Positions 17,732 through 37,350 are shown, numbered from the stretch's first letter. The stretch is DNA of 64,000 bases from an uncultured delta proteobacterium (GCA_963850125.1 CAWKKB010000001.1:101546-165545); one strand, 5' to 3'. The notes: generated by a model not told the origin, from the sequence alone. Numbers and translations: made by a program.

Positions 17732-17760
17732 GGGTTCGATCCAGACTGCGCCATCCGCCA
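17732..17760 (+). other. Degenerate tRNA-3'-like / att-like sequence
   Basis: GGGTTCGATCCAGACTGCGCCATCCGCCA: T-loop-like start and TCCGCCA end, about 257 bp from the recombinase stop. Confidence 0.45.
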
Positions 17761-18016
17761 CACAGTTTGTAGGATTCACATACAATTCGGAGAAGGCGGC
17801 AAATTGGCGCGTGGACGGGCCGATTCGCTCAATCCGTGGCACCGGAGAGACGGAGCAATGCTCATAAATTGCCAATTCAGCGCAATCCTCTCTGTTTCGA
17901 AAAGACTCGGTGCCACGGGCCGAGCCCTCCTAGCTGGCCCCTTGGACGCTTGATCTTTCGCCAGAATCGATGGGGCCTGGAGGTCTCAGAAGGGAGAAGG
18001 AAAAGGGGGGACGTTT

Positions 18017-19699
18017 CTACTCCGCCAGCAGTCGCTGCTGTGCATCCCATTCGATAGGAACGCCGGCCAGAACCTTGAGGCGCTCGGCTGAGAGGCAGAC
18101 GCCTTGCCGCCCGGCGCAGATAGATTCAACGATTGCTGGAGCGAGCAGGGCTAGCGGCACCATATGACGCACATAGCTGTCGCTCACACCTTCTCGAATG
18201 GCGATCTGACTGGTTGAAGTGGCAGTTCCTGCCGCGAGTTCGCCGAACCACTGGTGACCGCGGGCCAACGCTCGAAGCAAGGCAGGATCGGTCCGAGGTG
18301 TTGCGAGCGCTTCACCCGGGAGCACCAGACGCGTCTCGACGCCACGACGCCTCATCTGCAGAGGGACAAGACGGGTCATCCGAGGATCGGCTCCGCCAAC
18401 GGGGAATCGGTCAACCGGGAGCAGCGCTCGAAGGTTGAGTGTGATCTGCATGGCATCCCGCCTAAGCTCCACTCGGTCGATGAGAGGACCGGTGTCTTCC
18501 GTCGTCTCGATCTGCTCGAACGATTTGACCTTGGCATCTACTGTTTCGATGGCCCGCTTGAGTTCCGCAGCAGCGAAACCAAGAGCCTTGAGGGTCGAGG
18601 CCAGTGCGCCGCGATCCGACACGATCTGTCGTATGCCGGCAACTACGGCTCGTTCCATGCGTTCAGCGGGCAGACGCCACCCGCGGTCATCAGGCTTTGT
18701 GTTCCCCCTGACCAGTCTCTTCGAAACCAAATATCGGTAGCGCCGCTGTCCCTTCTTCGCCCAGCAGGAATAGAGCGGCTCGCCGCTCTCATCGAACAGT
18801 TTGCCCATGAGCAGGCCAGGGCCCTTTCTAACTGTCCGTCCCCGCGGGTGAGCGGCCTTCTGGCTCAGCATCTCCTGAACTCGCAGCCAGGTTGCTCGCT
18901 CAATAATGGCCTCGTGCTGACCCGGGTAGGCAACGGACTTGTGCCGGATCTCGCCCCGATAGATAGGGTTGGCGAGCAGGTGGTAGAGCGCGCCGCGTCC
19001 GAAGGAGAATCCGCCGTGCTGTATGCTTCCCCTTGATAACCACCGCTTAGAGACGATCGACCTGCGGTTCAGTTCCTCTCTGACTTTGCGCAGCGTCTTG
19101 AGCTCAAGATAAAGCCGGAATATCAGGCGCACCGTCTTGGCTTCGCCCTCATTTATTACCAGGCGACGATCGCGCAGATCGTAGCCTAGCGGCGGCGTGC
19201 CGCCCATCCACATTCCCTTCTGCTTGGAGGCCGCGATCTTGTCGCGGATGCGCTCGCCAGTAACCTCGCGTTCGAACTGCGCAAACGAGAGCAGCACGTT
19301 CAGGGTCAATCGGCCCATCGAGGTGGTGGTATTAAATTGCTGGGTGACTGCAACAAACGAAACTCCGTGGGCATCGAAGATCTCCACGATCTTGGCGAAG
19401 TCAGCCAGCGATCGGGTGAGGCGATATACCTTGTAGACGACGACCACGTCGATGCGCTTTTCCTTGATCTGTTCAAGCAAGGCTTTGAGCGCCGGTCGCT
19501 CCATCGTCCCGCCGGAGAAGCCGCCGTCGTCATACGCGGTCTTAATCAGGCGCCAGCCCTCGCCGGCTTGGCTCCTGACGAATGCTTCGCAAGCCTGGCG
19601 TTGCGCATGCAACGAGTTGAAGTTCTGGTCCAGACCTTCCTCTGAGGACTTGCGCGTGTAGATTGCGCAGCGCTTGGGAACGCCGTCACTTCGAGCCAT
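18017..19699 (-). CDS. Large serine recombinase (copy 1; DRLxR motif altered to YRLTR)
   Basis: CAIYTRKS catalytic Ser; QQFNTTTSMGRLTLNVLLSFAQFERE; PLGY recombinase domain. Confidence 0.95.
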   Translation of the reverse strand: MARSDGVPKRCAIYTRKSSEEGLDQNFNSLHAQRQACEAFVRSQAGEGWRLIKTAYDDGGFSGGTMERPALKALLEQIKEKRIDVVVVYKVYRLTRSLADFAKIVEIFDAHGVSFVAVTQQFNTTTSMGRLTLNVLLSFAQFEREVTGERIRDKIAASKQKGMWMGGTPPLGYDLRDRRLVINEGEAKTVRLIFRLYLELKTLRKVREELNRRSIVSKRWLSRGSIQHGGFSFGRGALYHLLANPIYRGEIRHKSVAYPGQHEAIIERATWLRVQEMLSQKAAHPRGRTVRKGPGLLMGKLFDESGEPLYSCWAKKGQRRYRYLVSKRLVRGNTKPDDRGWRLPAERMERAVVAGIRQIVSDRGALASTLKALGFAAAELKRAIETVDAKVKSFEQIETTEDTGPLIDRVELRRDAMQITLNLRALLPVDRFPVGGADPRMTRLVPLQMRRRGVETRLVLPGEALATPRTDPALLRALARGHQWFGELAAGTATSTSQIAIREGVSDSYVRHMVPLALLAPAIVESICAGRQGVCLSAERLKVLAGVPIEWDAQQRLLAE

Positions 19700-20171
19700 G
19701 ACTCGCCTCCTGCGGACGTCTTCCCCGCAGACCGAAGAAGTGCGGCCCGTTCCTGTGCGCGCCGGTGATCAACTGGGCTACTTCAGTCAGCGACCGGTAG
19801 CGCTTTCGTTTGTACAGCACTCCGCGATCCAGCACCCTGACCTCGTGATTGACGCCGTGCCAATCGCGCATCAATACGGTCCCGGCTGAAGCTGCCGAGG
19901 ATGGCTCAGGTTTTAGCGGGCGTCCTGAGAGCGCGTCGGTGGCCAGCCGAATGAGCAGTCTTCGGGTCGATGGCTTGAGTCCCCCGTAAACTTGCTCCTG
20001 AATTCGGTAGGCCACGGCACGGGTCAAAAGCTCGCGACTGATGCGATGTGGTGGATCGGAGTGGTAGAGCGCCTGCCACCGCTGTTTCAGCTCGGCGACC
20101 GAATACGACTTCAGCCTTGCGATCCGCTGTGGGATCGGCTCCGGCGACCTGAAAGATCTCTCGTCCTGCAT
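19686..20171 (-). CDS. DUF2924 domain protein (copy 1)
   Basis: AYRIQEQVYGGL, GTVLMRDWHG, YRSLTEVAQLITG..NGPHFFGL; overlaps the recombinase start. Confidence 0.9.
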   Translation of the reverse strand: MQDERSFRSPEPIPQRIARLKSYSVAELKQRWQALYHSDPPHRISRELLTRAVAYRIQEQVYGGLKPSTRRLLIRLATDALSGRPLKPEPSSAASAGTVLMRDWHGVNHEVRVLDRGVLYKRKRYRSLTEVAQLITGAHRNGPHFFGLRGRRPQEASHGSK

Positions 20172-20206
20172 GTGTGCCTCGCCTCCTCGCGCGGGCAGAC
20201 ACACAC

Positions 20207-20784: not shown

Positions 20785-21798
20785 CTACGGCTTGGTGGCG
20801 AGGATCAGCGGCGAAGGCAGCGCCGCCGACTTGATGATTTTGAGCGCACCGAAGCCCGCCTCTTTGAGCCACTCGCGATACTCACGCATCGTAAAGGTCG
20901 CGCCGGCCGGCGTGTGCAGCATCATGTTCAAATCGAACAGCATCGGTATTGCGGGGCCGGTTCGCGCGTCGTTCGGGATCAACTCCGCGATGAGGAGCAT
21001 GCCCTTGCTGCGCAGCGCCGCGGCACATCGCGCGATGAGCCGCTTGCCCCATTCGGCGCCCTCGCCATGGATGATGTGGCCGAGGACTACGAGGTCGAAT
21101 TGTTCCGCGCCGAAGTCCACTTCGCGGAAGTCGCCCTCGCGATAATCGAAGCGGTCTGCGACTCCATAGCGCTCTGTATATTGGCGAGCGACCGGAACGA
21201 CCTCCGGCAAATCCACCAGCGTCACGCGCGCGCCGGGGATATCCTGGGCAATTGAAATCGACCATGACGCGGCGCCGCCGCCGACATCGAGGACTTTCCT
21301 GATTCGCTTGCGCGTCTGGGGCGCCATCCCGCGCGCCGCGATTTTTCCGGCGGCGTAACTCTGCGGGAAGATGCTCTTCACCAGCACCGCGAAAAACTCT
21401 CCACGGGATGCTCCGCCCTGGACAGCAGGATGTCCGTCGCGAACGGCCTGCGCCAATTGCTGCCAGCTCGTCGAGAGCATTCTCACAACCTGGTCGATGC
21501 CTTCCATGAACAGGTCGCTCTTGCGGGAAAGGAACGTTCGCGCCGCTGGGCTTAACTCGTATTGCTCTCCGCGACGCGCCAGGTACTTCATCGCGACCAG
21601 AACATCGAGCAGCCGCCGGACCGTGGACGCGTTCGCGCCGGCGCGTGACGCCACCGCGTCGGCGGTTTGCTTGCCTTCATCGATCGCGGTGAAGACGTCA
21701 AGTTCGACCGCCGCCGCGAGCGCTGAGGTTCGCCACGCTGCCCACTGGTCGGCGTAAATCTGCATCGGCGACGGAATTGGGCGTGATTTTGCTGCCAT
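20785..21798 (-). CDS. SAM-dependent O-methyltransferase with dimerisation domain
   Basis: ALAAAVELDVF, VLDVGGG, GDF, HIIH motifs; RBS GGAGGAG. Confidence 0.9.
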   Translation of the reverse strand: MAAKSRPIPSPMQIYADQWAAWRTSALAAAVELDVFTAIDEGKQTADAVASRAGANASTVRRLLDVLVAMKYLARRGEQYELSPAARTFLSRKSDLFMEGIDQVVRMLSTSWQQLAQAVRDGHPAVQGGASRGEFFAVLVKSIFPQSYAAGKIAARGMAPQTRKRIRKVLDVGGGAASWSISIAQDIPGARVTLVDLPEVVPVARQYTERYGVADRFDYREGDFREVDFGAEQFDLVVLGHIIHGEGAEWGKRLIARCAAALRSKGMLLIAELIPNDARTGPAIPMLFDLNMMLHTPAGATFTMREYREWLKEAGFGALKIIKSAALPSPLILATKP

Positions 21799-22329
21799 GG
21801 CTCCTCCGGAGATATTTAAGTCTGTTTCAATTGAGCTGCTTCGACGATCGAAAGACGATACCAGACTCAAAGATAGAGTAAGAAACAGCAGTGGGGTGAG
21901 AGTTGGCCCGTGCCTTAATCAGTCATCCCAAACCAGATTGTGCAGCTGGTTCGGGAACACAGCGCGGAAACTCGCTGAAAGATCTCAGCATCGATGAGCT
22001 ACAGACTCTTGCCAGTTCGCGCAACTATACGATCGACGTCTTATCTGCTGTTCCAGTTCGGAGCTTTAGCTGAACTCCGCAGATGCGCGCGATGCGGACC
22101 GGAGAACAGAATGTGGAGGCGAATGCCGGGCGATAATGTTCGCTGCAGCTCAGCAAGATCGCCTCGAACAGCGGAGAACTTCAAAGGACACGTCGAAAAC
22201 ATCCTCGCATTACAACGTAACAAACCATCGAACCCGTTCGTTCAGTCCTAAATTACGCCTCCTTTGCAGAAGCCCGAAAGGGCGAAGGAAGTAAGACGGT
22301 CATGGCTTCCACGATGAACGAACGGGTGT

Positions 22330-22482
22330 TTGATCAGCACGCCGGCGACAGTCGAGCAGGCCGAAGTCAGTGAAGGTCTGGGGATCGCTCGCTACCGCGC
22401 GTTGGAAGAGTTCCCTAGCCTGGTATTCGGCGTCATGACGATAGCGTACATCGTCATGTCGTTTGCCAAGCTCGCACTCTGA
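22330..22482 (+). CDS. Small membrane protein (probably frameshifted from ATG 22302/22314)
   Basis: LISTPATVEQAEVSEGLGIARYRALEEFPSLVFGVMTIAYIVMSFAKLAL*; its 3' end is repeated at 29798. Confidence 0.4.
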   Translation: MISTPATVEQAEVSEGLGIARYRALEEFPSLVFGVMTIAYIVMSFAKLAL

Positions 22483-22556
22483 TGCGCGGAGACACTAACA
22501 GAGGTAGCCCCAGGCCACCCCGAGGCTCCCGACCAACTCTTTCAATACGAATTAGC
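22454..22556 (+). repeat. About 100-bp imperfect direct repeat, copy A (copy B 29798-29898)
   Basis: GTCGTTTGCCAAGCT.GC.CTCTGATGCG...CTAACA...CTCCC.ACCAACTCTTTCA..ACGAA.TAGC shared. Confidence 0.8.
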
Positions 22557-22601
22557 CGCGAACGGACGAGGCTAATTTTTAGAAGGTGGTCGGTGGGTTG
22601 G

Positions 22602-25600
22602 CTATGCTCCCAGCTGTTCCAGCAGGGCCTTGGCGTCTTTCAGGTCGGCGGTGTCGAAGCCCTCGGTGAACCAGTTGTAGATTTCCGCGAGCATTGCGCG
22701 CGCCTCCTCGCGATGACCTTGCTTCGACAGCAAGCGGGCCATGCTGGTGGTCGCGCGCAGCTCCCACGACTTAGCGTCACGTTTCCGGGAATGTTCGATC
22801 GCCGTCCGAAAACAGAGCTCGGCCTCAGGGGCGTAGGCCGCATCCTGCGCGAGTAATACCTCGCCTTTTATACGATGCAACTCCGGCTCAAATGCGGCTT
22901 CCCCGGTTTCGTTCTCCGCCGTCAATGCCGCTGCTATGAGTCTCACCGCTTCCATAGTCTGTCCCACCTGTCCACACGCTTCGGCCATTGGGCCAAGAGT
23001 CGGACCCGTATTTTTCGCACCTGTGGCCACGGAAGCTTCGGCCCCTACCTTCATGAGCGCGATTCCCTCCGTGACTTCGCCGGACTGCGCGAGCGCTTTG
23101 CCCAACTGGAAGGTGCAGAACGCCTTCCACAGGGCAAATCCGTGTTCGTTTGACAGAGCTAGTCCCTCCTCCGCGAACTTTTTTGCAATCCGCGCCTCTC
23201 GACGAAGGGCATACCCCGCAGCCGCATGATGCAACGCCATAGTAGTACTGCTGTGGTGCCCCCGCTCCTGGGCCAGCAATAGTGTGCGTTTGATCCTTTC
23301 GAGCGCCTGCTCGGGATAGCCGAGCATCCAAAGCGCCCAGGCCGCATAGCCCGAAACGCCGGTTGCAACATCCATCCCATAGATTACCGCGAGATGCCGT
23401 TGGCGCGGAGCATCAAAAAGCGACGCAGACTGCTCGAAATGCGAGTGGGCAAGCGCCAAGTCGCCCGTCCAGAACAGGATTATCCCCATCATTCCGTGAG
23501 CGAACATCCGTTTGGATGAATCATCTGAAGACTGCGCGAGGTCGAGAAGTTGACTCCCTATAGTGTGCGCCGTCTTGAACTGTCCACCAACCATGTAATG
23601 CAGAAACAATCCGCCTTGTGCCCAAAATGTCTGCTGGTCGTCACCCACCCGTTGGCTAAGCTCCATAGCACGCGCGTATGCAGCCTGGGTTTCTGGCGCG
23701 GCATCGCCTTTGGTTTCCATCAGCGAGGGCCCGAGCGCGAATTGCAACGCGAGCTCGTACCGATCGCGTTCAAGCGTTTCCGGCAGTTTCGTAAGCAGAT
23801 CCAATCCCGTGCTCAAGTTGGCGACGGCCTCAACGTAAGCTGCACGCTTGCCCGCCTGCTGGCCCGCCAGATTCAGGTATTCAACGGCCTTATAAGCGTT
23901 GCCGGCGCGTTGATAGTGATGGGCCAATTCGTTGAGGTGATCCTCAAGTCGCTCGGCATAGAGCGACTCCATTGCGCGGGCGGTTCGCTCATGGAGTGAT
24001 CTTTGCCGCTCACTGAGCATCGAGTTCAGCGCTACTTCCTGCGTAAGGGCGTGCTTGAAGCTGTATTCGATGTCATTGGCGCTGAGCTGCTCGAAGATGA
24101 ACTCTCGTTTCTCCAACTCGGTCAGCATCGGACCGAGAGTCTCGTCCGGCTGGGCAGTTACCTCCCGTGCGAGGCTGAGCGGGAACTGCTTGCCGATTAT
24201 CGCAAGCGTCTGCAGGAGCTGCTTCTCGTCCACGGGCAGCCGATCGATACGTGAGGCGAGTATTGCCTGCACGGTCGGCGGGATCCGCAGGTGGGCCGGA
24301 GACGCGGCGGTCTTGATCTCTCCGTCGCGGATCAGCGCGCCCTCTTCGAACAGGGCCTGCACCGTCTCTTCCATAAAGAACGGATTTCCGCCAGCGGTCT
24401 CCAAAATCTGGCGCCGCAATGGCTGCACCTCGCGCGTATCGCCTATCAACGCAGTGAGCATCTCGGCGGCGCTCTCCTGGCCCAGCGGTTCCAGGCGCAA
24501 TTGGGTGTACGACGATTGATTGCCCCATTCGTGCCGGTATTCGGGACGGTAATTAACAAGAAGCAGCACTCTCGCGGCACCGATCGAGTCAGCCAGGAGA
24601 TTGAGCAGAGCCTGCGTCTCGCCATCGATCCAGTGCAGGTCTTCGAAGATGACCATCAGCGGCTGATCGCGAGCTTCGCGCATCATGATGCGCTTAATCG
24701 CATCGAACGTCCTGCGCCGCCACGTCTGCCCATCGGTCTGCGCCAAGGGGTCATCACCTTCGACGATACCCAGGAGGCCGAAGAGGTACGGCAACGCGTC
24801 TTCCAGCGAGCGGTCGAGTGTATAGATTCTGCCGCTTACCTTCTCGCGCCGCCGGCGCGGATCGTCGCTGATCTCAATACCAAAGTAAGAACTCATCAGG
24901 TCGATAAGCGGCGCGTAGGGGTTGGCCTTTCCGTGCGAGACCGAGAATGCTTCCATCACGGTCCAGCCGCGCTGATAGCGAACCTTGAACTCGTAGAACA
25001 GGCGCGACTTGCCGACCCCCGGCTCGGCCACCGCCGCGACGATTTGTCCGTGACCTTGTTTCGCCTGCTCGGCCGCGCTGCTCGTCGCTTGCATCTCGCG
25101 ATCGCGACCCACGAATTTCGTGTAGCCGCGGATGGCGGCGCGCTGAAGCTTAGTGCGAAGTGGTCCGAGACCGGTCACTTCGTACACGTTGACCGTCTCT
25201 GTCACACCCTTGATTTTTGTCGGTCCGAGCGACTTCAGCCCAAAATATCCGTCGACCAGTTTCTGCATCGCTCCAGAAATCGCGATCGATCCGATCGGCG
25301 CCAGAGCCTGCAGACGCGACGCGAGGCTCGCTGAATGACCAATTGGCGTGTATTCAGTGTGCTCATCGTCGGTGCGTATGGTGCGGACCACCACTTCACC
25401 CGTGTTCGCCCCGATGCGAGCCTGGAGCGGGGGTTTGCCCTCGCTTCTCAACCTGGCGGAGTAACGCCTGATGTCCTCCTGCATGCGCAGCGCCGCATGC
25501 AACGCGCGCTGCGGATGGTCTTCGTGAGCAACGGGAGCGCCGAACAGCGCGAAGATTCCGTCGCCCGTCGACTGAACGACGTAGCCGCCGAAACGATGGG

Positions 25601-25976: not shown

Positions 25977-26042
25977 CCCGTCTCAAAATCAGCTCGTACG
26001 CTCGTAAACCCCTGCGTTGAACTCGAGTCAGCGGAGCGACCC

Positions 26043-26660: not shown

Positions 26661-26745
26661 ATGGTTGCCCCTCCACGGTGTTTTGGGTCCCTCCGAATAG
26701 CTAGTGCACCTTGGAGAACATTAGCCGCGACGGTGCGCGGCGTCA

Positions 26746-26784: not shown

Positions 26785-26802
26785 CCTTGCTAACCATGGT
26801 CT

Positions 26803-29700
26803 GTGACTGCGAAGTTGAGCGTGTTCGCGCCCTTCAGGCTCGATACGAGTAACGAGCAGTTGTGGCGCGGCTCAGAAGAAATTCGCCTTAGACGCAAAAC
26901 CTTTGCCGTCTTGCGTTACTTGGTCGAACATCCAGGCCAATTGGTAACCAAGGCGACATTGCTTGACGCCGTCTGGTCAGACGTCGCCGTCAGCGACTCG
27001 ATGCCTGCGATTTCGGTGCGCGAAGTACGCGAAGCACTGGGCGACGATGTCAGCGCGCCGCGCTTCATCGAGACGGTCCGAGGCAGGGGGTATCGCTTCA
27101 TCGCCAACGTCGCAAACGAAGTCGGTGACAACACGACTTCCGTGGGCGGGCGCGCAACCCATACCGAGCCAGGGCCCCGATTCAATTCCTTTGTGGGGCG
27201 AAAACACGAGTGGTCTCAGATGCTCGCCGCTTTGGCCGATGCAACTTCAGGGCAGGGCCGGCTTTGCCTGATTTCCGGGGAGCCGGGAATTGGCAAGACC
27301 CGGCTCTGCGCCGAACTGGCCCTCGAGGCTCAAGCTGGAGGCGCAGCCCTGGTAGAGGGCCACTGCGCCGAGCAAGAAGCGACGCCTTATCTGCCATTCA
27401 TCGAAATCCTTGAAAAGTACATCGATCGCGCCTCGGATCCGGACGCAGTCAGGAGGTTACTCGGGGATGAGGCCTCTGACCTCGCACGCCTGCTGCCCAA
27501 ATTGAATCGTCTTCTGCCTGATTTGCCGATCACACTCAATTTGCCCGCCGATCTGGCGCGCCGACAGCTCTTCAACAGCTTCAGCAACTTCATCGCACAC
27601 CGCGCTCGCGAACGGCCAATACTGTTGGTAATCGAGGATCTCCATTGGGCTGACGAATCCACCCTCGCTCTCACGCGCCACCTGTCCGAGCGAATATCTG
27701 ACGTCCCCGTATTAGTGATTGGCACGTATCGCGAGACCGAAGTGGATGTGGGTCCCGCGCTATCAAGAACCCTGGATGACCTGATCCGGGAAAGGCTCGC
27801 GCTTCAAATAAGACTCAAAGGTCTGCCATCCGGCGATGTAGCGCAGATGTTGGAAACGCTGAGCGGTAAGACCGTTCCTGCGATGGTGGTCGGCGAGTTC
27901 ATGGCTGAAACCGACGGAAACCCATTCTTTGTCGAGGAGTTGTTCCGGCATCTCGATGAAGAGGACCGGCTTTACGACTCGACCGGTCAATTTCGCGCGC
28001 GACTGAAGATCGATGAGCTGAATGTCCCGCCCAATGTGCGATTGGTTGTTGGTCGACGAGTTACACGGCTCGACGAGGATACCCGCAAAATTCTCGCTGT
28101 GGCCGCGGTGATCGGGCGTTCTTTCGCGTTCGAGCTTCTTGAGGCCGCGTCCCGGAAGGAGTCGCCAGCGCTACTGAATTGCCTGGATGAGGCGCTGGCG
28201 GTGGGACTGATTCGCTCCAGTGTCGAGCAGCCGCGCGCCCGGTTTGAGTTTTGCCACGAACTGACTCGACAGGCGATCCTGACGCCGCTCTCCGTTGCGA
28301 GACGCCATCGACTCCATCTCGACGTAGCCGAGGCGATCGAGGAAACGTATTCCGCCACGTTGGACGTCTATGCCAGCGAGCTGGCGTATCACTATGTTCG
28401 GACGGATAAAACCTGGAAGGCTGTAAAATACCTGAATCTAGCGGGCAAGCAGGCAAGCCGGCAGTCAGCGCATATCGAGGCGTTAGACAAGTTGAGTGCG
28501 GCTATCGCGCTGTTGAAGAATCTGCCCGAAAATCCTGAACGCGACCAGGAAGAGCTCTCTTTGCTGCTCTCGATAGGTACTTCAGTAATAGCTGTTAAAG
28601 GATTCTCAGACCTGGAAGTGGAGCGTACCTACGTTCGCGCGTCGGAACTCTGCCATCGTTGCAGTGACACAAGGCATCTCGCTCAGGCGCAACAGGGATT
28701 GGCAGCCCATTACTTGCTGAGATCACGGATCCGCCAATCACAAGAAATGGCTAAGAAAGTTCTCGATCTCGTTCGCCGTACGAACTCTCCATATCCCGCG
28801 CTATCGGTCGCCATTTTCTACTTCGCGATGCCTACATTCTGGCTTGGAGAGCTGGAGATCTCTCGCTCTGATCTTGAGGAAGCAGTCGCACTTATCGAAG
28901 AGCGACCTCCACAAAAACCGTACGACATTCACGACTCCCTCACCGGCTCATTGCAGTACTTGGCCTGGAACCTGTGGTACCTGGGGTATCCCGAAAAGGC
29001 TCGAATCGTTGCCCAACGCTCGCTCGCAGAAGCCCGAGAACGAAAGGACCTCTTCCTTCTGGCATGCGCGCTGAACCAGGTCGCCAGATTTTACGTCCTT
29101 CGTCGCGAAGCGAAGATTGCCCAAGAACTCGCATGCGAAGGACTGGCGCTGGGCAATCAGCAAGGCTTTCCAACTTGGTCAGCGGAAAGCATGCTGGTCC
29201 AAGGTTGGGCGATGGTCCACACCGGCCACGTAGCAAATGGTATCGTTCGCTTGCGAGAAGGCCTCGCCGCTCGCTGGGCAATCGGGGAAGCGGGCGCGCA
29301 ACCGCACTATATCGGGTGGCTGGCTGAAGCGTTGGGGAAAGTGGGCGGGCATGAAGAGGGCCTGAAGTTGCTGGACGAGGTACTGGAGCCCGAGCATGAA
29401 GTTCTCGTGTATGAGCCCGAACTATATTGGATCAAGGGCGGACTGTTGCTCTCGCAAGACAGCTCGAACACGTCGCAAGTTGAAGACGCCTTCTGCACCG
29501 CGATTGACATCGCGCGGAAGCACCGCTCGAGATCGATGGAACTGCGTGCAACAACCAGCCTCGCCGTTCTCTTCGCGAAAAATGGCCGCCGTGATGACGC
29601 GCGGGCGATGCTCACGGAAATCTACAACTGGTTCAGCGAAGGCTTTGAGACCGCCGATCTGCTGAATGCCAAGGCGCTCCTCGATTTACTGAACGAGTAG
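26803..29700 (+). CDS. OmpR-type winged-helix + STAND NTPase + TPR regulator
   Basis: PRFIETVRGRGYRF; GEPGIGKT; IEDLHWAD; GNPFFVEE; conserved C-terminal cap. Confidence 0.92.
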   Translation: MTAKLSVFAPFRLDTSNEQLWRGSEEIRLRRKTFAVLRYLVEHPGQLVTKATLLDAVWSDVAVSDSMPAISVREVREALGDDVSAPRFIETVRGRGYRFIANVANEVGDNTTSVGGRATHTEPGPRFNSFVGRKHEWSQMLAALADATSGQGRLCLISGEPGIGKTRLCAELALEAQAGGAALVEGHCAEQEATPYLPFIEILEKYIDRASDPDAVRRLLGDEASDLARLLPKLNRLLPDLPITLNLPADLARRQLFNSFSNFIAHRARERPILLVIEDLHWADESTLALTRHLSERISDVPVLVIGTYRETEVDVGPALSRTLDDLIRERLALQIRLKGLPSGDVAQMLETLSGKTVPAMVVGEFMAETDGNPFFVEELFRHLDEEDRLYDSTGQFRARLKIDELNVPPNVRLVVGRRVTRLDEDTRKILAVAAVIGRSFAFELLEAASRKESPALLNCLDEALAVGLIRSSVEQPRARFEFCHELTRQAILTPLSVARRHRLHLDVAEAIEETYSATLDVYASELAYHYVRTDKTWKAVKYLNLAGKQASRQSAHIEALDKLSAAIALLKNLPENPERDQEELSLLLSIGTSVIAVKGFSDLEVERTYVRASELCHRCSDTRHLAQAQQGLAAHYLLRSRIRQSQEMAKKVLDLVRRTNSPYPALSVAIFYFAMPTFWLGELEISRSDLEEAVALIEERPPQKPYDIHDSLTGSLQYLAWNLWYLGYPEKARIVAQRSLAEARERKDLFLLACALNQVARFYVLRREAKIAQELACEGLALGNQQGFPTWSAESMLVQGWAMVHTGHVANGIVRLREGLAARWAIGEAGAQPHYIGWLAEALGKVGGHEEGLKLLDEVLEPEHEVLVYEPELYWIKGGLLLSQDSSNTSQVEDAFCTAIDIARKHRSRSMELRATTSLAVLFAKNGRRDDARAMLTEIYNWFSEGFETADLLNAKALLDLLNE

Positions 29701-29898: not shown

Positions 29899-30112
29899 TG
29901 ACTAGCTGACTATCCTCCCACTAGGAGGGATTCGAACTGCAAATCTTCGGCTGATGTTATACATGCTAGGCATCAGCACAGCGAAGGAAGGGACCCGGAG
30001 AGCTTCGAAGAGCCGAACCGAGGACGAACATATTCTCTCCAACACTGATGCTTTTATTCAGGGAGAATAGTGCGCCAAAACTCGGGCCGAATTCCGCCCA
30101 TGAAAGAACTCG

Positions 30113-30149
30113 GGGCACTGGAGTTTCGAATCCCCCCCCCTCTCCGCCA
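30113..30149 (+). other. tRNA-Ser-like 3' half remnant (att-like)
   Basis: GGGCACTGGAGTTTCGAATCCCCCCCCCTCTCCGCCA; no 5' half found. Confidence 0.65.
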
Positions 30150-30381
30150 TACAGTCTGACATGTTTCCATACATTATGGAGAAGCGATAAAATCGGCGCA
30201 TGGGGCGCGATTCACGCGCGGTCGTGGACGCGGAGAATGCCAATGGTGGCGGCTGAGCGCAAATTCCGCGCAAGATTCTCTGTTCGCGATTTTCGCATGT
30301 CCATCTGCGAACCGGCCGCCATTTTGCGGGGAAGCGTCCTCGCGAAGAAGGCCTGACGCAGGCAACTACGCCCGCGTGTGT

Positions 30382-32070
30382 CTATCGGGGTTCCAGAGCT
30401 TGCTCCTGCGCAGTCCAGAGCGGGGGCAGTTCGATTCTTTGGGTAATCGCTATAGCCCTGAGGTCTGCGGGCTGCCGGCCTTGGGCGATTGCCTCAACGA
30501 TCCTTGGCGCCAGAAACGCCAGTCGCATCACGCGCCGCACGTGACGGCCTGTAACATGTTCTCGCCTGGCGATCTCGCCGATCGATTGCGCCCGGCCAGC
30601 CAGCAGATCGTTGGACCATCGATACGCACGAGCGGTCGCGTTGAGCAGTGGTAGATCAACGCGTGGCAGGGATGCAGCGTCACCATTAATGATCAGGCGC
30701 ATCTCAACGCCGCGCCGCTTTATCCGCATCGGAACGAATCGACTTAGCGCAAGTTCGGGCGGAGTCGCGGTATCACGTCCTTCATCGGATGGGATCGGCA
30801 ATTTAATGGAAACCTGGATGCCGCTCTCCTTGAGTCCAACGCGTTCGATCAGCCGGATGAGCGTCGATGAGGCTTCCGATTCGGACCGCAGGCTTTTAAT
30901 CCAGGCTTCGGCGACCTTGAATATCGAAGGCAATCGGCTCGCATCGATGTTGAGTTCTTCAATCGCTCCCGCGATTGCCACTCGATCACCGAGAATCTGC
31001 CGAGTCGCAGCGCGGACGGCTCGCTCAAGCTCCGGTGCAGCTACGCGCCACCCGCGCTGGTCATCCTGTAATGATCCCCTGACCAATCCGCGCGAGACGT
31101 AGTAGCGATAGTGGCGCGCGCCTTTTACCCCACCCTGCACATATAGGGGCTCGCCGTTCTCGTCGAACAGTTTACCCGCAAGCGGGCTGGAAGGCGCTTT
31201 GGTCGGGCGTTCGCGATGGGCGGCGGCTTGATCGCGCAAGCGCTGCTGGACCTTCTCCCACAGTTCCCGGCCCACTATCGACTGGTGTTGCCCTGGATAG
31301 CGTACCTTCTTGTGACGAATTTCGCCCAGGTAGATCGGGTTCGACAGCAGCTCGTAAAGAGCGCCGCGCGAAAATTGCCGGCCTCCCGATCGCACTCCGT
31401 TTTTCGACACCCGGATTTTGGAGTTGATCTCAAGGCGCTCCAAATCATTTCTCAGGAGCCGAACGGAACAGAGTTCGAGATATCGCTCATAGATGTGTTT
31501 CACCGTCGCGGCTTCGGCCCGATTGACTACCAGCCGGCGATCGCGGACGTCGTAGCCCAGTGGCGGCACTCCGCCCATCCACATGCCCTTGCGCTTGGAG
31601 GCGGTGATCTTGTCCCGGATCCGCTCGCCCGTTACCTCCCGCTCGAATTGTGCGAAGGACAGTAGGACGTTGAGTGTAAGTCGGCCCATTGAGGTAGTGG
31701 TGTTGAACTGCTGGGTGACTGCGACAAACGAAATGCCGTGCGCGTCGAACACCTCAACCATCTTGGCGAAGTCGGCGAGCGAGCGGGTCAGGCGATCGAC
31801 TTTATAGACGACCACAACGTCGACGAGTCTGCGCCTTATATCTTCCAACAGGCGTTGAAGGGCGGGACGCTCCATGGTCCCACCTGAAAGGCCTCCATCA
31901 TCATAAGCGGTCTTGACGAGCCGCCAGCCCTCGCCCGTTTGGCTCTTGATGAACGCCTCACACGCCTCGCGCTGCGCGTGCAGCGAGTTGAAGTCCTGCT
32001 CCAGTCCTTCCTCGGAAGATTTGCGGGTGTAGATCGCGCAGCGCCTTGTTCGCGGCTTAGCGCGTTCCAT
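30382..32070 (-). CDS. Large serine recombinase (copy 2, motifs intact)
   Basis: CAIYTRKS, VYKVDRLTRS, SFAQFERE, PLGY. Confidence 0.95.
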   Translation of the reverse strand: MERAKPRTRRCAIYTRKSSEEGLEQDFNSLHAQREACEAFIKSQTGEGWRLVKTAYDDGGLSGGTMERPALQRLLEDIRRRLVDVVVVYKVDRLTRSLADFAKMVEVFDAHGISFVAVTQQFNTTTSMGRLTLNVLLSFAQFEREVTGERIRDKITASKRKGMWMGGVPPLGYDVRDRRLVVNRAEAATVKHIYERYLELCSVRLLRNDLERLEINSKIRVSKNGVRSGGRQFSRGALYELLSNPIYLGEIRHKKVRYPGQHQSIVGRELWEKVQQRLRDQAAAHRERPTKAPSSPLAGKLFDENGEPLYVQGGVKGARHYRYYVSRGLVRGSLQDDQRGWRVAAPELERAVRAATRQILGDRVAIAGAIEELNIDASRLPSIFKVAEAWIKSLRSESEASSTLIRLIERVGLKESGIQVSIKLPIPSDEGRDTATPPELALSRFVPMRIKRRGVEMRLIINGDAASLPRVDLPLLNATARAYRWSNDLLAGRAQSIGEIARREHVTGRHVRRVMRLAFLAPRIVEAIAQGRQPADLRAIAITQRIELPPLWTAQEQALEPR

Positions 32071-32539
32071 CACGGCTCTCTTCTGGTGATCGCTTGAGTC
32101 CGAAGAATAAGGGACCCGACCATCGAGTCCCGGTGATCTCTCGCGCAACTTCCGAGAGCGAACGGTAACGCTTGCCCCCGAAAGAAAATCCCTTTTCGAG
32201 AACGCTTACCTGATGGCTGATGCCGCGCCATTCACGCACCAGCACCACGCCGGGCTGCACGATTCGAGACGGTGCCGCAGCGAAAGCCGACCCGTTAGCG
32301 CCGTCATGGGCGAACTCTGCCAGCAGGCGCTGCGTCGACGGCTTGAGGCCGCCGAAAGCTTCCTCCTGGAGCCGATATGCGATCGCGCGCGTCAGAAACG
32401 ACCGGCGGATATCGCGCGACGGCGCCTTGCCGAACATGGCTTTCCAGCCCGCGCGAAGGTCCTTGGTACTAGCCTTTGACAGGCCCGCAATCTCCGCAGG
32501 AAGCGCATCTCGGTTCAGAACCTGCGCCCGTCGCTTCAT
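32057..32539 (-). CDS. DUF2924 domain protein (copy 2)
   Basis: AYRLQEEAFGGL, LVREWRG, YRSLSEVAREITGTRWSGPLFFGL. Confidence 0.9.
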   Translation of the reverse strand: MKRRAQVLNRDALPAEIAGLSKASTKDLRAGWKAMFGKAPSRDIRRSFLTRAIAYRLQEEAFGGLKPSTQRLLAEFAHDGANGSAFAAAPSRIVQPGVVLVREWRGISHQVSVLEKGFSFGGKRYRSLSEVAREITGTRWSGPLFFGLKRSPEESRDGTR

Positions 32540-33214: not shown

Positions 33215-33299
33215 GCGACTTGAGCTATTCAGAATAATATGGCAAACCCCCCTTCCGCCGATCGATCGCAGGATGACGAAACCAGATGGTATCGCCCGA

Positions 33300-36200
33300 T
33301 CAGCCGAGCTTGTCGAGCAGGGCCTTGGCGTCTTTGAGGTCGGCAGTGTCGAAGCCTTCGGTGAACCAGTTGTAGATTTCGGCGAGCATCGCCCGCGCTT
33401 CGTCGCGCTTGCCTTGCTTGACGAGCAGCCGCGCGAGGCTTGTGGTCGCGCGCAACTCGTATGATTTGGACTCCTGGCCGCGAGCGATCAAGATCGCTTC
33501 GCTGAAGAGATCCTCGGCCTTGCGCTCGCTGCAGCGCCCAGCCTCGAGCTGCAGCTCACCTTGCATGCACTTCACAGGCGAGGAGAACCTCGGCGTCCAG
33601 GTGGTCTGGTCCAACAGGGCCAGCGCTTCATCGAATCGGCGGAGTTTCCTGTACGCCACGAACACATCGAAAAGGGCACCGCCACCCGCCAAGCCCATCG
33701 CGCGCCGCGCGGCCAATGATCGCTGAACCTCGTTGAGCCCTTCCTCGACGCTGCCCTTTTTCACCAAGCACCAAGCGCGCCAGTAAGTTCCCTCCTCTCT
33801 GTAGAACCCGAACCCGTGCTCATCCGCCAGCACGCGCATCTCATTCGCCGCTTCCTCAAGCGCAGAGACTTCGCCGCGATATCGGTAGACCGTACAGACG
33901 CCCGAATACGCCGAGCATAACGGAAAGGGCCTCCCGAGCCTGCGCGCCAGCGTCAGCGCTTCGCGGCAACGCTCAAGAGCCTGGTCCGGAAAACCGAGGG
34001 ACCAAAGAATTTCGCCGAGAACGTCGAGGGCCGTAATGCGCGGATCCGCAACCGGAAAGACAGTGTGCTCCGCAATAGCGGGAATGAGAGCGATGGCTTT
34101 CTCGAGATGCGCGCGGGCGTCACGGTGCCTGCCCTGGTATTCGAGGCTTTCTCCAAGCGCGGTGTTCGCCCATAGCAGCCTTGCGGGGCCGGGTTCACGC
34201 TCGGCCAGCGCAACGAGCTGTTGCGAAGTCTCGAGGTCGTTCTGCCATTGGCTCTTGAAATTGTAGAAGAACCTGAGGCCCAGCAGCACGCGGAAGGTCC
34301 GCCGGGTGTCGCCAAGCTGCGTGCAGAGATCCCGGGCGCGCGCGAACGCCGCGCCCATCTCGTCATCGGCGAGACCTCTAGCGGCGGCTGCAGCCTCCGC
34401 AAACGTGATTTGCAGGCTCGCTTCCTCGCGACGGCGCTCGTCGTCCTCGGGCAGGCTTTTTAGCAATTGGAGTGCGGCGTTCAGATGGACGATTGCTTCG
34501 CTGTGGGCGAAGCGCCGATGAGCCTGCTGGCCCGCCAGGCCCAGATATTCCAGCGCCTTTCGGACGTTGGCGCTGCGGCCGTAGTGGTAAGCGAGTTGGC
34601 TCAGATGATCGTCGATTGACTGAGCGAATGACGCTTCCATGGCGGAACCGATTCGTTCGTGCAGCAGCTTTCTGCGCTCGACCAGCACCGACTTGTAGGC
34701 GACATCGTGGGTGAGCGCGTGCTTGAAGATGTACTCGATGTCGCCGACCGCAGGCTGCTCATAGATGAACTCGCCGAGCTGCAAGTCATTGAGCATGCGG
34801 CTTAGTTCGTCGTCGGATTTCGGGACGACGGCACGAATCAACGAGAGCGAAAACTCCCTACCGATGACGGCCAGCGCTTGCAGCAGGTCCTTGGACTCCG
34901 GGGGCAACTGGTCGATGCGCGCGGCGATGATTCCTTGCACGGTGGGAGGAATTTTGAGATCGCCGAGCGGCCGGGTGAGTCGCGTAATGCTGCCGTCGCG
35001 AACCAATGAGCCTTCGTCCAGCAGGACCTGCACGGTCTCTTCCATAAAGAAGGGATTGCCTTCGGTGCGTTCTATGATCACGCGCTTGAGCGGCACCAGA
35101 TCCTTGCCGTCGCCGAGCAGCGCCGACAGCATCTCGTCGGCGCTCTCCTTGCCGAGCGGGTCGAGCCGAAGCTGCGTGTAACAGGTCTTGCTGTTCCACT
35201 GATGCGAGTATTCGGGCCGGTAGTTCACCAGCATCAGAATTTTGGAATTCGGAATCGAATCCGCGAGAAGATTGAGCAGCGCCTGAGTCTCTTCATCGAT
35301 CCAGTGCAGGTCCTCGAAGATCACCATCAGCGGCTGGTTGAGCGACTCGCGAACCAGGATGCGCTTGATCGCATCGAGGGTGCGCCGCTTGCGGACCTGC
35401 GCGTCCATCTGCGCCAACGGATCGTCTCCCTCGACGATTCCGAGCAGCGCGAACAGATACGGCAGGGTGTCCTCCTGTGCGCGGTCGAGCATCAGCACTT
35501 TGCCACCGATCTTCTCGCGCCGCGCACGGGCGTCGTCGTCACCGATGATTTTGAAGTAACCGTGCAATAGGTCGAGAACCGGCAGGAACGCCGATGCCTT
35601 GCCATGCGAGACCGAAAAGGCTTCGAGCACCATCCAGCCCGATTGATTTTTGACCTTGAACTCGTAAAACAGCCGCGACTTGCCGGTGCCGGCCTCGGCC
35701 ATCGCCGCGACGAGTTGCCCGCGACCGGCCGTCGCTCGCTCCGCCGCGGCTTTCATTGCGTCCATCTCGCGCTCGCGGCCAACGAACTTGGTCAGACCGC
35801 GGCCTGCCGATCGTTGCAGCCGCGTGCGCAGCGGCCCGAGGCCGGTGACTTCGTAAACGTTGACCGGCTCACTGACGCCTTTGACCTTGGTCGGTCCGAG
35901 CGGTTTGAGCGCGAAATAGCCCTCGACCAGCTTGCGCGTCTGCTCGCTGATCGCGATCGAGCTGGTCGGCGCGAGCGCCTGCATCCGCGACGCGAGATTG
36001 GTCGTGTGCCCGATCGGGGTGTATTCGTTGTGTCCGCCGCCCGTCGCGATCGAACGAACCACAACCTCGCCTGTATTCACGCCGACGCGCGCCTCGATCG
36101 GCAGGTTGCCCGCTTCGCGCAATCTTGCCGAATAGCGTTTCAGCTCCTCCTGCATCCGCAGCCCCGCATACAGCGCGCGCTGCGGATGATCCTCGTGCGC

Positions 36201-36638
36201 GACCGGTGCGCCAAACAGCGCGAAGATACCGTCGCCAGTCGATTGCACGATGTAGCCGTCGTAGCGGCGGACAGCGTCGATCATCAGCTTGAGTGCGGGA
36301 TCAACAATTGCGCGCGCCTCTTCGGGATCGAGGTCCTGCTCCAGCTCGGTCGATCCTTTGATATCCGCGAACAGCGCCGTGACCGTCTTGCGTTCGCCCT
36401 CGAGATTCTCGGGTGAGCTACTCTCCGCCGCGACACGTACGTCGGAGGCCGACCCTCGCGGCGGTGAAGTTGACGGCGCGGTGTTAGGAGCTAGCGCGGT
36501 ACCGCAGTCCTCGCAGAATGCCGATGAAGGTGCGTTTTCAGCGCCACACTTCGGGCATCGATTGGAAATTGGGCTGCCGCACACTGCGCAGAACTTCTTG
36601 CCGGTCTTGCTTTCGGTTCCGCACTTCGAGCAACGCAT
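33300..36638 (-). CDS. Double zinc ribbon + class III nucleotidyl cyclase + STAND NTPase + TPR protein
   Basis: Four CxxC; FADIKGST, TGDG, NLASR; AEAGTGKS; FEDLHWID; conserved cap. Confidence 0.92.
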   Translation of the reverse strand: MRCSKCGTESKTGKKFCAVCGSPISNRCPKCGAENAPSSAFCEDCGTALAPNTAPSTSPPRGSASDVRVAAESSSPENLEGERKTVTALFADIKGSTELEQDLDPEEARAIVDPALKLMIDAVRRYDGYIVQSTGDGIFALFGAPVAHEDHPQRALYAGLRMQEELKRYSARLREAGNLPIEARVGVNTGEVVVRSIATGGGHNEYTPIGHTTNLASRMQALAPTSSIAISEQTRKLVEGYFALKPLGPTKVKGVSEPVNVYEVTGLGPLRTRLQRSAGRGLTKFVGREREMDAMKAAAERATAGRGQLVAAMAEAGTGKSRLFYEFKVKNQSGWMVLEAFSVSHGKASAFLPVLDLLHGYFKIIGDDDARARREKIGGKVLMLDRAQEDTLPYLFALLGIVEGDDPLAQMDAQVRKRRTLDAIKRILVRESLNQPLMVIFEDLHWIDEETQALLNLLADSIPNSKILMLVNYRPEYSHQWNSKTCYTQLRLDPLGKESADEMLSALLGDGKDLVPLKRVIIERTEGNPFFMEETVQVLLDEGSLVRDGSITRLTRPLGDLKIPPTVQGIIAARIDQLPPESKDLLQALAVIGREFSLSLIRAVVPKSDDELSRMLNDLQLGEFIYEQPAVGDIEYIFKHALTHDVAYKSVLVERRKLLHERIGSAMEASFAQSIDDHLSQLAYHYGRSANVRKALEYLGLAGQQAHRRFAHSEAIVHLNAALQLLKSLPEDDERRREEASLQITFAEAAAAARGLADDEMGAAFARARDLCTQLGDTRRTFRVLLGLRFFYNFKSQWQNDLETSQQLVALAEREPGPARLLWANTALGESLEYQGRHRDARAHLEKAIALIPAIAEHTVFPVADPRITALDVLGEILWSLGFPDQALERCREALTLARRLGRPFPLCSAYSGVCTVYRYRGEVSALEEAANEMRVLADEHGFGFYREEGTYWRAWCLVKKGSVEEGLNEVQRSLAARRAMGLAGGGALFDVFVAYRKLRRFDEALALLDQTTWTPRFSSPVKCMQGELQLEAGRCSERKAEDLFSEAILIARGQESKSYELRATTSLARLLVKQGKRDEARAMLAEIYNWFTEGFDTADLKDAKALLDKLG

Positions 36639-36921
36639 TGATCCGTACCGCCTCCTCAGGACAACGCGATCTTGTATCACCAGCGGCCCGCTTGCGGACA
36701 TCGCCGACTGTCTGCCTAGCAGGGGAAAATTTGAACTCGGAACTATTAGCCTGGTTATTGGCCTCTACAATATGCGGGCCTCGGACCTCGACCGAAGGGG
36801 GACCGGAGATGGGTCAAGCACAGCCGAATCACTGGCGAAGAATATCTCTACAGCATTGCTGCTTTATCTTGGGACTGAATAATGCGCCAATGTTGGGCAC
36901 ATTTCTGGCGCTCGATTGCCA

Positions 36922-36959
36922 AAAGGGTACCGGGGGTTCGAATTCACTCCTCTCCGCCA
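36922..36959 (+). other. tRNA-Ser-like 3' half remnant (att-like)
   Basis: AAAGGGTACCGGGGGTTCGAATTCACTCCTCTCCGCCA: variable-arm, T-arm and acceptor-like sequence; no 5' half. Confidence 0.7.
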
Positions 36960-37213
36960 GCGAGTCTCAGGTTTGAGGGATTCTGCGGGGAAGTGCGCAA
37001 ACTGCGCGCGTGCAGTGGCGATTCGCACGGGTCATCGGGAACGGAGAGCGCTCAAAGGAGCGCGGTGCCGCGTCGCTTCGATTTTCTCTCTCTGGGCGAG
37101 TAATTCGGTCCCGATGCCTGCGGTTGGCGAAGGCAACTTCAGGGCTGAACCCACCGATGTCGCGAGCGGCGCTAAGGGCGCCTCAAGCTTCCGATGAGAG
37201 AAAGGCGTTGCCA

Positions 37214-37350
37214 ATGAGCATCGCCTTCTGAAGCGTCGCCACGTCCGTTGGGAACCAGAGCGCAAGTGCGAATTTTCTCGGCTACTCAACGTTCAGAACG
37301 GTTCTCTGCGTGCCAGGAGAGCGGAAGCTCGATGCGTCGGGTGAGAGCTT
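37214..37350 (-). repeat. Recombinase 3'-end remnant; direct repeat of 39801-39940
   Basis: Minus strand reads LTRRIELPLSW..., compare ITQRIELPPLW at the end of recombinase copy 2; near-identical to 39801-39940. Confidence 0.8.

Follow-up and report, generated by a model that had tools for sequence, protein, structure and literature searches.

The question raised by this locus is how three sequences resembling the 3' end of a serine tRNA gene, each followed by similar DNA and by the 3' end of a recombinase gene on the opposite strand, came to lie in a row in the genome of an uncultured delta proteobacterium. The stretch analysed, hereafter the window, is 64,000 nucleotides (64 kb) long and corresponds to bases 101546-165545 of contig C1 in a genome of 15 contigs that is 86.7% complete; related records are labelled Binatia or Candidatus Binataceae. 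A first interpretation made without database searches (the sequence-only reading) had proposed the tandem accretion of one element family into tRNA-Ser-like sites, tied to serine recombinases instead of the usual tyrosine integrases. Our analysis favours, with a probability of roughly 0.8, a tandem array of integrative elements that use a large serine recombinase (LSR), with a DUF2924 protein as its partner, to insert at the 3' tip of tRNA-Ser genes. The anatomy, homology, boundaries and tRNA association of these elements are shown below by sequence comparison.

The core TCCGCCA is found on the + strand at 17754-17760 (site 1), 30143-30149 (site 2) and 36953-36959 (site 3). By itself the heptamer is weak evidence, with 24 copies in the window against 13.2 +/- 3.3 expected; a likeness to the T-arm and acceptor strand of a tRNA, however, lies upstream of each of these cores (GGGTTCGATCC.. 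from 17732, GGAGTTTCGAATCC.. from 30120 and GGGGGTTCGAATTC.. from 36931). The approximately 165 nt that follow each core, here called the tail, can be aligned three ways with a mean column identity of 61%, and all six blocks named in the sequence-only reading (AGTYT, GGRGAAG, GCGC, CGATTC, CGGAGA and TCTCT) correspond to conserved columns of this alignment. An nhmmer profile was built from 12 tail copies located elsewhere, with sites 1-3 left out. It matched the window at 30143-30319 (E 1.7e-40), 17754-17920 (E 4.2e-26) and 36953-37123 (E 9.8e-14) and at no other place, so that both the three ends, closing at 17760, 30149 and 36959, and the similar spacer behind each of them are real. A stricter profile containing only 4 distant copies recovered site 1 (E 3.9e-5) and site 3 (E 0.0034) and missed site 2. 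The tails were also considered as coding sequence: the + strand open reading frames (ORFs) 17657-17953, 30048-30356 and 36916-37197 are dissimilar as proteins (22 and 32% identity, with long gaps), and the conservation of the spacer is therefore non-coding. Scanning two of the spacers for promoters and terminators gave no terminator and no common promoter. A loose regular expression for the T-arm, run over the genome, produced 644 matches, mostly due to chance, and was uninformative. A stretch of the form TTCGAATTC...CATCCGCCA at 10294-10322, within the ORF 8875-11751 (Trans_reg_C/AAA_16), has no tail behind it and probably arose by chance.

Minus-strand recombinase stops had been placed 257, 233 and 323 bp beyond the three sites. 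The first two belong to full-length LSR genes; the third distance is also right, but the gene there is dead and persists as a remnant. With the units numbered E3 to E6 along the window, and with the element of another Binatia genome (G002) and the LSR of a further locus (L035) as references, the features are as follows.

17524..17717, + strand: seven TTCCCTG repeats at the right end of the upstream unit E3; of 14 matches in the window (7.2 expected over its full length), 7 fall in this stretch
17732..17760, + strand: site 1, the E3/E4 seam, a weak T-arm look-alike with the TCCGCCA core
17761..17925, + strand: left tail of E4, starting with CAGT, with GAGA boxes at +30 and +85 and a TCTC box at +129
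18017..19699, - strand: LSR of E4, 560 aa (PF00239, E 7.7e-38; PF07508, E 1.8e-15), its stop 257 nt after site 1
19686..20204, - strand: DUF2924 gene of E4 (PF11149, E 1.5e-41), overlapping the LSR start by 14 nt
20785..29700, no strand assigned: cargo of E4, comprising an O-methyltransferase, a zinc-ribbon/cyclase/AAA_16/TPR protein, a 205-aa unknown protein and a Trans_reg_C/AAA_16 regulator
29982..30149, + strand: right end of E4, closing in site 2 (look-alike 30120-30149, with the core)
30150..30319, + strand: left tail of E5 (profile E 1.7e-40), inside an 87%-identical block of 2401 nt common with the G002 element
30382..32148, - strand: LSR of E5, an ORF of 588 aa (PF00239, E 1.2e-38; PF07508, E 5.6e-14), its stop 233 nt after site 2
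32057..32539, - strand: DUF2924 gene of E5 (PF11149, E 4.4e-46), overlapping the LSR start by 14 nt if a start at residue 27 is right
33300..36701, - strand: cargo of E5, a zinc-ribbon/cyclase/AAA_16/TPR protein of 1133 aa, whose gene and the G002 cargo gene are 72% identical in nucleotides
36511..36959, + strand: right end of E5, closing in site 3 (look-alike 36931-36959, with the core), 88% identical to the right end of the G002 element
36960..37123, + strand: left tail of the decayed unit E6 (profile E 9.8e-14)
37304..37387, - strand: remnant of the E6 LSR C-terminus, about 32 residues, matching residues 528-559 of the L035 LSR with 50% identity (small search, E 0.004)
37310..37693, + strand: fragment of an IS110-family transposase (PF02371, E 2.2e-4; 22.0 bits against a cut-off of 21.3)
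39873..40046, - strand: second LSR C-terminal remnant, 74 residues, 59% identical to residues 493-566 of the L035 LSR (E 4.4e-17)

The LSRs of E4 and E5 are paralogues with 56% identity, and each is accompanied by a DUF2924 gene whose match is well above the curated cut-off (142.3 and 157.0 bits against 31.2). The right ends of the two units are 66% identical over 174 nt. Alignment with the G002 LSR makes residue 27 of the E5 ORF (position 32070) the probable start of that protein. The tail of E6 is of the type found at L035 and L021, where it adjoins LSR genes; the L035 tail also abuts a tRNA-Ser(GCT) gene. The IS110-family fragment may have cut the E6 recombinase gene. Beside the second remnant, at 39873-40046, neither a tail nor a tRNA-like end was detected; this remnant directly follows an FAD/BBE oxidase gene. 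A unit on contig C2 (L010, 369.9-371.7 kb) is a paralogue of the dead unit E6: its tail repeats the first 47 nt of that at site 3 with 96% identity and has lost about 100 nt of the tail core, and it is accompanied by an LSR C-terminal remnant like that of E6 and an LSR N-terminal fragment of 53-57 residues.

The boundaries were tested on relatives. In G002 an intact tRNA-Ser(GGA) gene lies 232 nt from an LSR that is identical to the E5 LSR at 495 of 562 residues (88%, aligned from residue 27), and a repeat of the last 29 nt of this tRNA (28/29) is found 8.4 kb further on. The 8.4-kb element defined in this way is collinear end to end with E5 (30150-36959). Homology extends from 30125, in the T-arm, to 36966, ending 7 nt past the CCA on both, and amounts to 87% over 2401 nt (tail, LSR and DUF2924), 72% in the cyclase gene and 88% at the right end. 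Inside the G002 element lie five ORFs, for an LSR, DUF2924, DUF924, a cyclase-STAND protein and GST; no tyrosine integrase is among them, and the LSR is therefore its only recombinase. Judged by this collinearity, a mobile unit truly ends at sites 2 and 3. The sequence-only reading had named boundaries mapping elsewhere in related genomes as the result that would speak against it; those of the G002 element fall at the very sites it had noted.

For site 1 the comparison is provided by the right end of E3 with its TTCCCTG repeats. Homologues of this right end close a 22-kb element in G003 (72% identity) and a 37-kb element in G001 (67%), and each of the two elements begins at an intact tRNA-Ser(CGA) gene with an LSR. 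The window itself holds no tRNA gene; an intact tRNA at one end and a 3' piece at the other are present for the elements of G002, G001 and G003, and in all three genomes tandem or relic flanks lie beyond the elements. Near five further elements a BLAST search within 40 kb (10 kb for G005) gave no direct repeat of the tRNA end longer than 11 nt; two right ends near further elements were located by right-end homology instead.

The sequence-only reading took the tRNA-like pieces for duplicated host tRNA ends, and in this respect it does not hold: they are look-alikes carried at the right ends of the elements. Where the tRNA reads CCCC, the right end of E5 and that of the G002 element both read CCaC. 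Since this variant is common to both right ends and absent from the tRNA, the look-alike is element DNA and the exchange took place 3' of the variant. In a second type of right end (site 1, G003 and G001) the likeness is reduced to GTTCG and the final TCCGCCA. At sites 1-3 the match to the tRNA covers only the part beginning with the T-arm, or only the last 7 nt, and does not start at the anticodon loop. The two ends of the G003 22-kb element share only the 8-nt block TCCGCCAC, and for G002 and E5 the block shared beyond the variant base is no longer than the final 13 nt of the tRNA. On the assumption of a single cutting position throughout the clade, these limits would put the crossover within the last 7 nt of the tRNA gene, in agreement with the phage AcaML1 described below.

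Sequencing data of 20 runs consist of short contigs; those of 4 runs, aligned to the region, gave fragmentary cover, with many joints stemming from paralogues at 90% likeness. One contig of run X5 matches 17508-17760 and is unlike the window beyond, and contigs of runs X5 and X6, which are unrelated soil runs, end at 36958 and 36954. In a single record of low depth (3.1), 30101 is linked to 36926 through 12 foreign letters; this record most likely represents a related right end.

The association with tRNA genes extends through the clade. Relatives of the LSR with 45-85% identity were collected at 79 loci assigned, by record title, to Binatia, Alphaproteobacteria, Acidobacteriota and others. 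A tRNA gene lies downstream of the LSR on the opposite strand at 39 of the 79 (Ser 22, Gln 9, Ala 3, Met 3, Lys 1 and Arg 1); the other 40 include short contigs and seams without a whole tRNA. The distance from the LSR stop to the tRNA end, measured at 29 of the 39 loci, is 186-620 nt. In one genome, LSRs that are 92% identical (509/551) are found at tRNA-Ser(CGA) and tRNA-Ser(GCT), and a tail of the same type is found at tRNA-Ser(GGA); these three tRNAs have a common T-arm and 3' strand of the acceptor. Within the family of the window genome the LSR occurs in 15 of 41 genomes, with 1-18 matches each, many of them broken. No tyrosine integrase (PF00589) was found in E4 and E5 among the 20 ORFs scanned, out of 83 of at least 80 aa listed for 15-40 kb, nor among the five ORFs of the G002 element. 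Together with the tRNA genes that face the LSR in about half of the loci, this upholds the tie to serine, not tyrosine, recombinases.

The array does not end at the window. Five LSR-DUF2924 pairs occur in the genome, four of them co-oriented on C1 (two more than in the window, at 30.3 and 65.7 kb) and the fifth at the end of C10. With paralogous recombinases each accompanied by DUF2924, one unit that matches the G002 element from end to end and more units upstream on C1, the proposed tandem accretion of one element family is well supported.

From these comparisons we infer where the crossover lies, how the events followed one another and what the tail, the repeats and DUF2924 do. Each element consists of a left end (a non-coding tail of about 165 nt after the tRNA CCA, followed by the convergent LSR and DUF2924 genes), the cargo, and a right end with the T-arm/acceptor look-alike. 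In the free circle the right and left ends would meet at the TCCGCCA core to form attP. The core of the circle would pair with the tRNA tip, and the LSR would exchange strands within ..TCCGCCA, leaving on the left a whole tRNA whose 3' end is supplied by the element and, on the right, the look-alike. A newcomer could then enter the rebuilt tRNA and push the older element downstream, with the tail of the resident serving as the far half-site. A seam would accordingly read as the look-alike of the newer unit, TCCGCCA and the tail of the older unit, which describes sites 1, 2 and 3 as E3/E4, E4/E5 and E5/decayed E6. Upon decay the LSR genes would be lost, as in E6 and the C2 arrays, and the seams would persist. 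Entry at the intact tRNA, with the left end of the resident as far half, is more likely than the sequence-only proposal that each copy offers a site for the next.

The array could also have been produced by segmental duplication, or by homologous recombination between elements residing at different tRNA-Ser genes. Such events would account for the look-alike of site 2, which resembles tRNA-Ser(GGA) and not GCT, for the relatives of E5 at GGA, CGA and GCT genes, for the 96% copy of the site 3 tail (47 nt) with an LSR fragment on C2 and for the presence of insertion sequence (IS) elements in the array. Yet cargo and recombinase differ between the units (56%), which are thus not recent duplicates, every seam has the form right end, core, left end, and tandem or relic flanks recur in the three other genomes. 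We regard this origin as unlikely, and serial integration by the LSR as the better account of the seams.

Tails are more numerous in the genome than complete units. A total of 21 copies were identified at E <1e-8, 8 of which had been included in the profile, and at least 10 copies that have no LSR follow T-arm look-alikes, not tRNAs. Further decayed arrays, with units down to 1.4-3.2 kb, lie on C2 behind tRNA-Ser(GGA) and tRNA-Ala(CGC). In the former (- strand) the seams are at 413.7, 384.8 and 371.7 kb; behind the latter (419390-419463) tails are found at 419.5, 422.7 and 425.0 kb and again at 451.7 and 453.0 kb. These recombinase-less units of 1.4-3.2 kb might move in trans. The recurrent ORFs of about 190 aa in the short LSR-less units gave a single weak Pfam match, to PagL.

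Four boxes occupy fixed positions when 25 tails are measured from the CCA. TCTC stands at +6 or +22 in 14 tails and GAGA at about +30 in 16; a second GAGA, at about +85, is present in 24 (the 25th tail being cut at its 5' end) and a second TCTC, at about +128, in 20. The last two boxes are 39-41 nt apart, in distant phyla too. An arm of 6-12 bp directly ahead of the +85 box is complementary to one located 15-17 nt beyond the +128 box, and the sequence of these arms differs between subtypes; in the left tail of E4 the outer inverted repeat is 11 bp long (CCGTGGCACCG/CGGTGCCACGG). The pairing was examined in a structure-blind alignment of 40 tails that had been selected by the box pair and not by the arms. 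Helix cells are paired in 76.4% of cases, compared with 60.8 +/- 1.3% in shuffles (none of 500 reaches the observed value) and 40-47% in slid alignments. All 10 outer pairs change on both sides, and the base beside GAGA covaries as well (GAGAG/CTCTC, GAGAC/GTCTC and GAGAA/TTCTC).

A helix of this kind was first read as RNA. The tail would then be a structured host RNA, such as a tRNA-Ser trailer or a small RNA, beside which the elements land or which they copy; besides the covarying pairing, the tails behind three tRNAs without an LSR and the contig from an RNA library that covers 30137-30243 are in line with this. The mismatches, however, show no strand bias (40 G·T against 38 A·C), RNAalifold on 25 tails returned no consensus and 0 pairs, and Rfam searched over 17000-38000 at E up to 1 gave only two weak unrelated matches, with none to the tail. 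For these reasons the RNA reading was dropped and the tail is read as a set of DNA-level sites. The tail also forms part of the repeat-bounded G002 element, accompanies the LSR beside Gln, Ala, Met and Arg tRNAs in other phyla and follows look-alikes in the LSR-less copies mentioned above; a host RNA is accordingly quite improbable. At the DNA level the tail looks like protein-bound inverted repeats or folded single-stranded DNA. Our best guess is that the first 25 nt or so (CAGTC...) serve as the far half of the core site, with an accessory role for the remainder and likewise for the TTCCCTG repeats. The RNA-library contig itself (run X19, a soil metatranscriptome; 246 nt) covers 30137-30243, from the tRNA-like end through about the first 95 nt of the site 2 tail, with 9 differences and is unlike the window on both sides; it is probably a relative's tRNA-Ser with its tail, present as RNA or carried-over DNA.

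The TTCCCTG repeats at the right end of E3 are arranged as four copies about 21 nt apart, followed by two direct copies and one inverted copy 43-72 nt before the core. Two other genomes have elements at tRNA-Ser(CGA) whose right ends show a matching layout, and the repeats are probable accessory protein-binding sites. Copies of CAGGGAAT are also found in the tail of an alphaproteobacterial element at tRNA-Arg (L071).

A second family of recombinases is involved further upstream. Two tyrosine-integrase units lie in the array, upstream on C1, and conjugation genes are located at the very start of this contig. Tyrosine integrases are encoded at C4:83290-84561 and C1:6870-8138. A 60-nt copy of the tRNA-Ser(GCT) 3' part, from the anticodon loop to the CCA (60/60 or 59/60), is present at C1:6775-6834, 30029-30088 and 65362-65421 and at C10:737693-737752, and about 150 nt upstream are common to all four copies. 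We read these four seams as footprints of tyrosine-integrase units, and the unit between 30 and 65 kb of C1 (E2) is probably composite. Because the 60-nt repeat is shared, the order of the units carrying it depends on the assembly; sites 1-3 share at most 11 nt with each other and are therefore free of that risk. The sequence-only reading had advised a search for an intact tRNA-Ser at the island edge. Here a tRNA-Ser(GCT) gene is found on C4 beside a tyrosine integrase, and the related elements in G002, G001 and G003 have an intact tRNA-Ser at one edge. Presumably C4 continues into C1. The end of C4 (L007, C4:65001-84933) holds the intact tRNA with an integrase similar to that on C1 (L001, C1:1-20000). 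Relaxase, TraD and TrbI genes precede a pseudo-tRNA at C1:6740-6834, in which the 3' 60 nt are exact and the 5' half is foreign.

That the tRNA-like ends are displaced tRNA 3' fragments of tyrosine integrases, with the serine recombinases as mere passengers (resolvases or invertases), is very improbable: tyrosine-integrase islands do use tRNA-Ser(GCT) and exact 60-nt 3' fragments do lie at four seams, but the scanned ORFs of E4, E5 and the G002 element hold no tyrosine integrase, sites 1-3 match from the T-arm on or over the last 7 nt, and the tRNA faces the LSR at 39 of 79 loci across phyla.

Several observations nevertheless weigh against an array built by LSRs. ARAGORN found no whole tRNA gene in the 64-kb window. 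The only intact tRNA-Ser(GCT) lies on C4, 1.7 kb from the contig end, and is followed by a tyrosine integrase, so that the head of the array is not assembled in one piece; two upstream seams combine the exact 60-nt tRNA-Ser(GCT) 3' part with the right-end type of the tyrosine units and reveal a second recombinase family at the tRNA. LSR and DUF2924 genes follow only 5 of the 21 tail copies, and three copies without an LSR stand behind intact tRNAs (Ser-GGA, Ser-CGA and Ala-CGC). The short-contig runs contained no excision circle, empty site or clean site-to-site joint, a result that is uninformative on activity. The zinc ribbon PF13408 typical of LSRs scores weakly in the recombinase (14.2 bits, E 0.06, cut-off 25.3), although the match spans positions 2-58 of the 58 in the profile, and a search of the whole LSR protein at E 0.01 gave no match to this family. 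Finally, stacking is the weakest step. The serine integrases that have been studied in detail are not known to recombine attP with a site already occupied (attL), so that serial entry requires either heterologous enzymes or a far half-site of relaxed sequence. N-C-R-AGTC is the start of native flanks and of tails alike, which may be why stacking is tolerated.

In other respects the recombinases resemble known integrases. Residues Y14, T15, R16, K17 and S18 are invariant in all five paralogues of the genome and align with AIYTRVST of TP901-1; the conserved serine is presumably the nucleophile. A profile of the five paralogues matches the catalytic domain of TP901-1 integrase (E 2.1e-24), and the C-terminal fragment of A118 integrase (4kis) aligns to query positions 170-351 (E 1.1e-9). 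The last 120 or so residues (18020-18382 and 30385-30747, both on the - strand) are conserved among the five paralogues, and a Pfam search with the final 121 residues of each LSR gave no family, even at E 10.

This C-terminal part holds the whole of the contact predicted with DUF2924, between LSR residues 475-551 and DUF2924 residues 24-91. The model of the LSR-DUF2924 complex scored 0.73 and the best of three controls 0.00; of 157 solved complexes 116 come up to this mark, as do 2 of 215 mismatched pairs, figures that are only approximate for the present case, in which our own 5-row alignments were used. Across the model runs at least 58% of the contacts agreed, and the partner had a predicted local distance difference test (pLDDT) value of at least 67. 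The prediction supports, but does not show, binding of DUF2924 to the C-terminus of the LSR. Folded alone from a 5-row alignment, DUF2924 has a mean pLDDT of 66.9, and a Foldseek search of this fold against the PDB gave 0 matches at E <=0.001. One report describes the DUF2924 domain as partly like the RAMA DNA-binding domain (PMC11342252).

A wider scheme may be offered tentatively, and we consider it more doubtful than probable. The attachment site would be compound, in contrast to the minimal sites of PhiC31 or Bxb1, with the core at the universal tRNA tip (a T-loop look-alike and ..CCA), a left arm made of the four phased GAGA/TCTC boxes and the co-varying inverted repeat, and, in one subtype, a right arm of seven TTCCCTG repeats; these arms would be read by the extra C-terminal domain of the LSR and by DUF2924. 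With such a site the clade could hop between tRNA species, control direction and enter occupied sites, giving arrays of more than 100 kb, and short units without an LSR could be moved in trans.

To our knowledge, textbooks do not link serine recombinases to tRNA sites. Integrases of the PhiC31/Bxb1 type mostly have protein-coding or intergenic targets, an attP of about 50 bp and no accessory DNA. The present LSRs are like the phage integrases PhiC31, Bxb1, A118 and TP901-1 in their resolvase catalytic and recombinase domains, in the position of the gene beside the attachment site and in the short shared identity. They are unlike them in the tRNA tip as target, the barely detectable zinc ribbon, the extra conserved 90 or so residues at the C-terminus, the constant DUF2924 gene and the long flanks. 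In the res sites of Tn3 and gamma-delta resolvases, as here, the crossover site of a serine recombinase is flanked by further inverted-repeat sites. The boxes of the tail differ from these, the enzymes are large integrases and not small resolvases, and an accessory role drawn from this analogy would be a guess. The tyrosine tRNA islands treated by Islander and TIGER, two of which are present in the array, are similar in that the tRNA is rebuilt, a fragment or look-alike lies at the far end and islands stack; they differ in recombinase family and in the shared block, which is 7-29 nt at the 3' end here and 45-60 nt from the anticodon or T loop there.

Serine recombinases are not known to target tRNA genes according to the Islander paper (PMC4383910), and a provirus survey of 2026 reports that tyrosine integrases preferentially target RNA regions (PMC13626063). 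Two phages are published as single exceptions. For the Acidithiobacillus phage AcaML1 the tmRNA gene (ssrA) is listed as attB, with 10-nt repeats (PMC3826726, Table 2). Its LSR (Gp2/Gp3, 'site specific recombinase') is 49.2% identical over 67% of the query, a small gene (Gp4) lies upstream at the end of the element, and its record opens on CCACCA, the last bases of a tRNA-like gene; the non-coding DNA behind them is GC-rich and includes GCGGAC...GTCCGT and CTCTCTG. Unlike the present units, which are small cargo islands, AcaML1 is a 59-kb tailed phage; the annotation splits its recombinase in two, and no tandem array of it is known. The Paracoccus phage vB_PamS_Pami6 is reported as the only phage of its survey with a serine recombinase that has a predicted site in a tRNA-Met gene (PMC6536676); no DUF2924 or tail is mentioned in this description. 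No account of a tRNA-targeting LSR-DUF2924 clade, its tail or its arrays was found in the literature searched, which excluded subscription journals and supplements, and all mentions of DUF2924 found there concern Wolbachia.

Island-finding tools and reviews reserve tRNA genes for tyrosine integrases. A widespread serine clade with the same preference would mean that islands are missed or given wrong boundaries, a matter of greatest weight in uncultured soil phyla, whose flexible genome consists in large part of such arrays. Serine integrases are also the preferred tools of genome engineering, and a conserved landing pad at the tRNA tip would offer ready-made sites in many organisms. The constant DUF2924 and the long conserved arms hint at a layer of control not described for this class of enzymes.

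The cargo is not regarded here as a defence system: PADLOC/NCBIfam gave a weak cyclase likeness to PycC of Pycsar (best E 2.6e-20), and the TOMM kinase/cyclase match was far below its cut-off. The large zinc-ribbon/nucleotide cyclase/AAA_16/TPR proteins encoded at 22602-25976 and 33300-36701 (both - strand) recur as island cargo. Two further ORFs, L003:946-4500 and 51667-55284 (- strand) of the window, match AAA_16 and TPR only.

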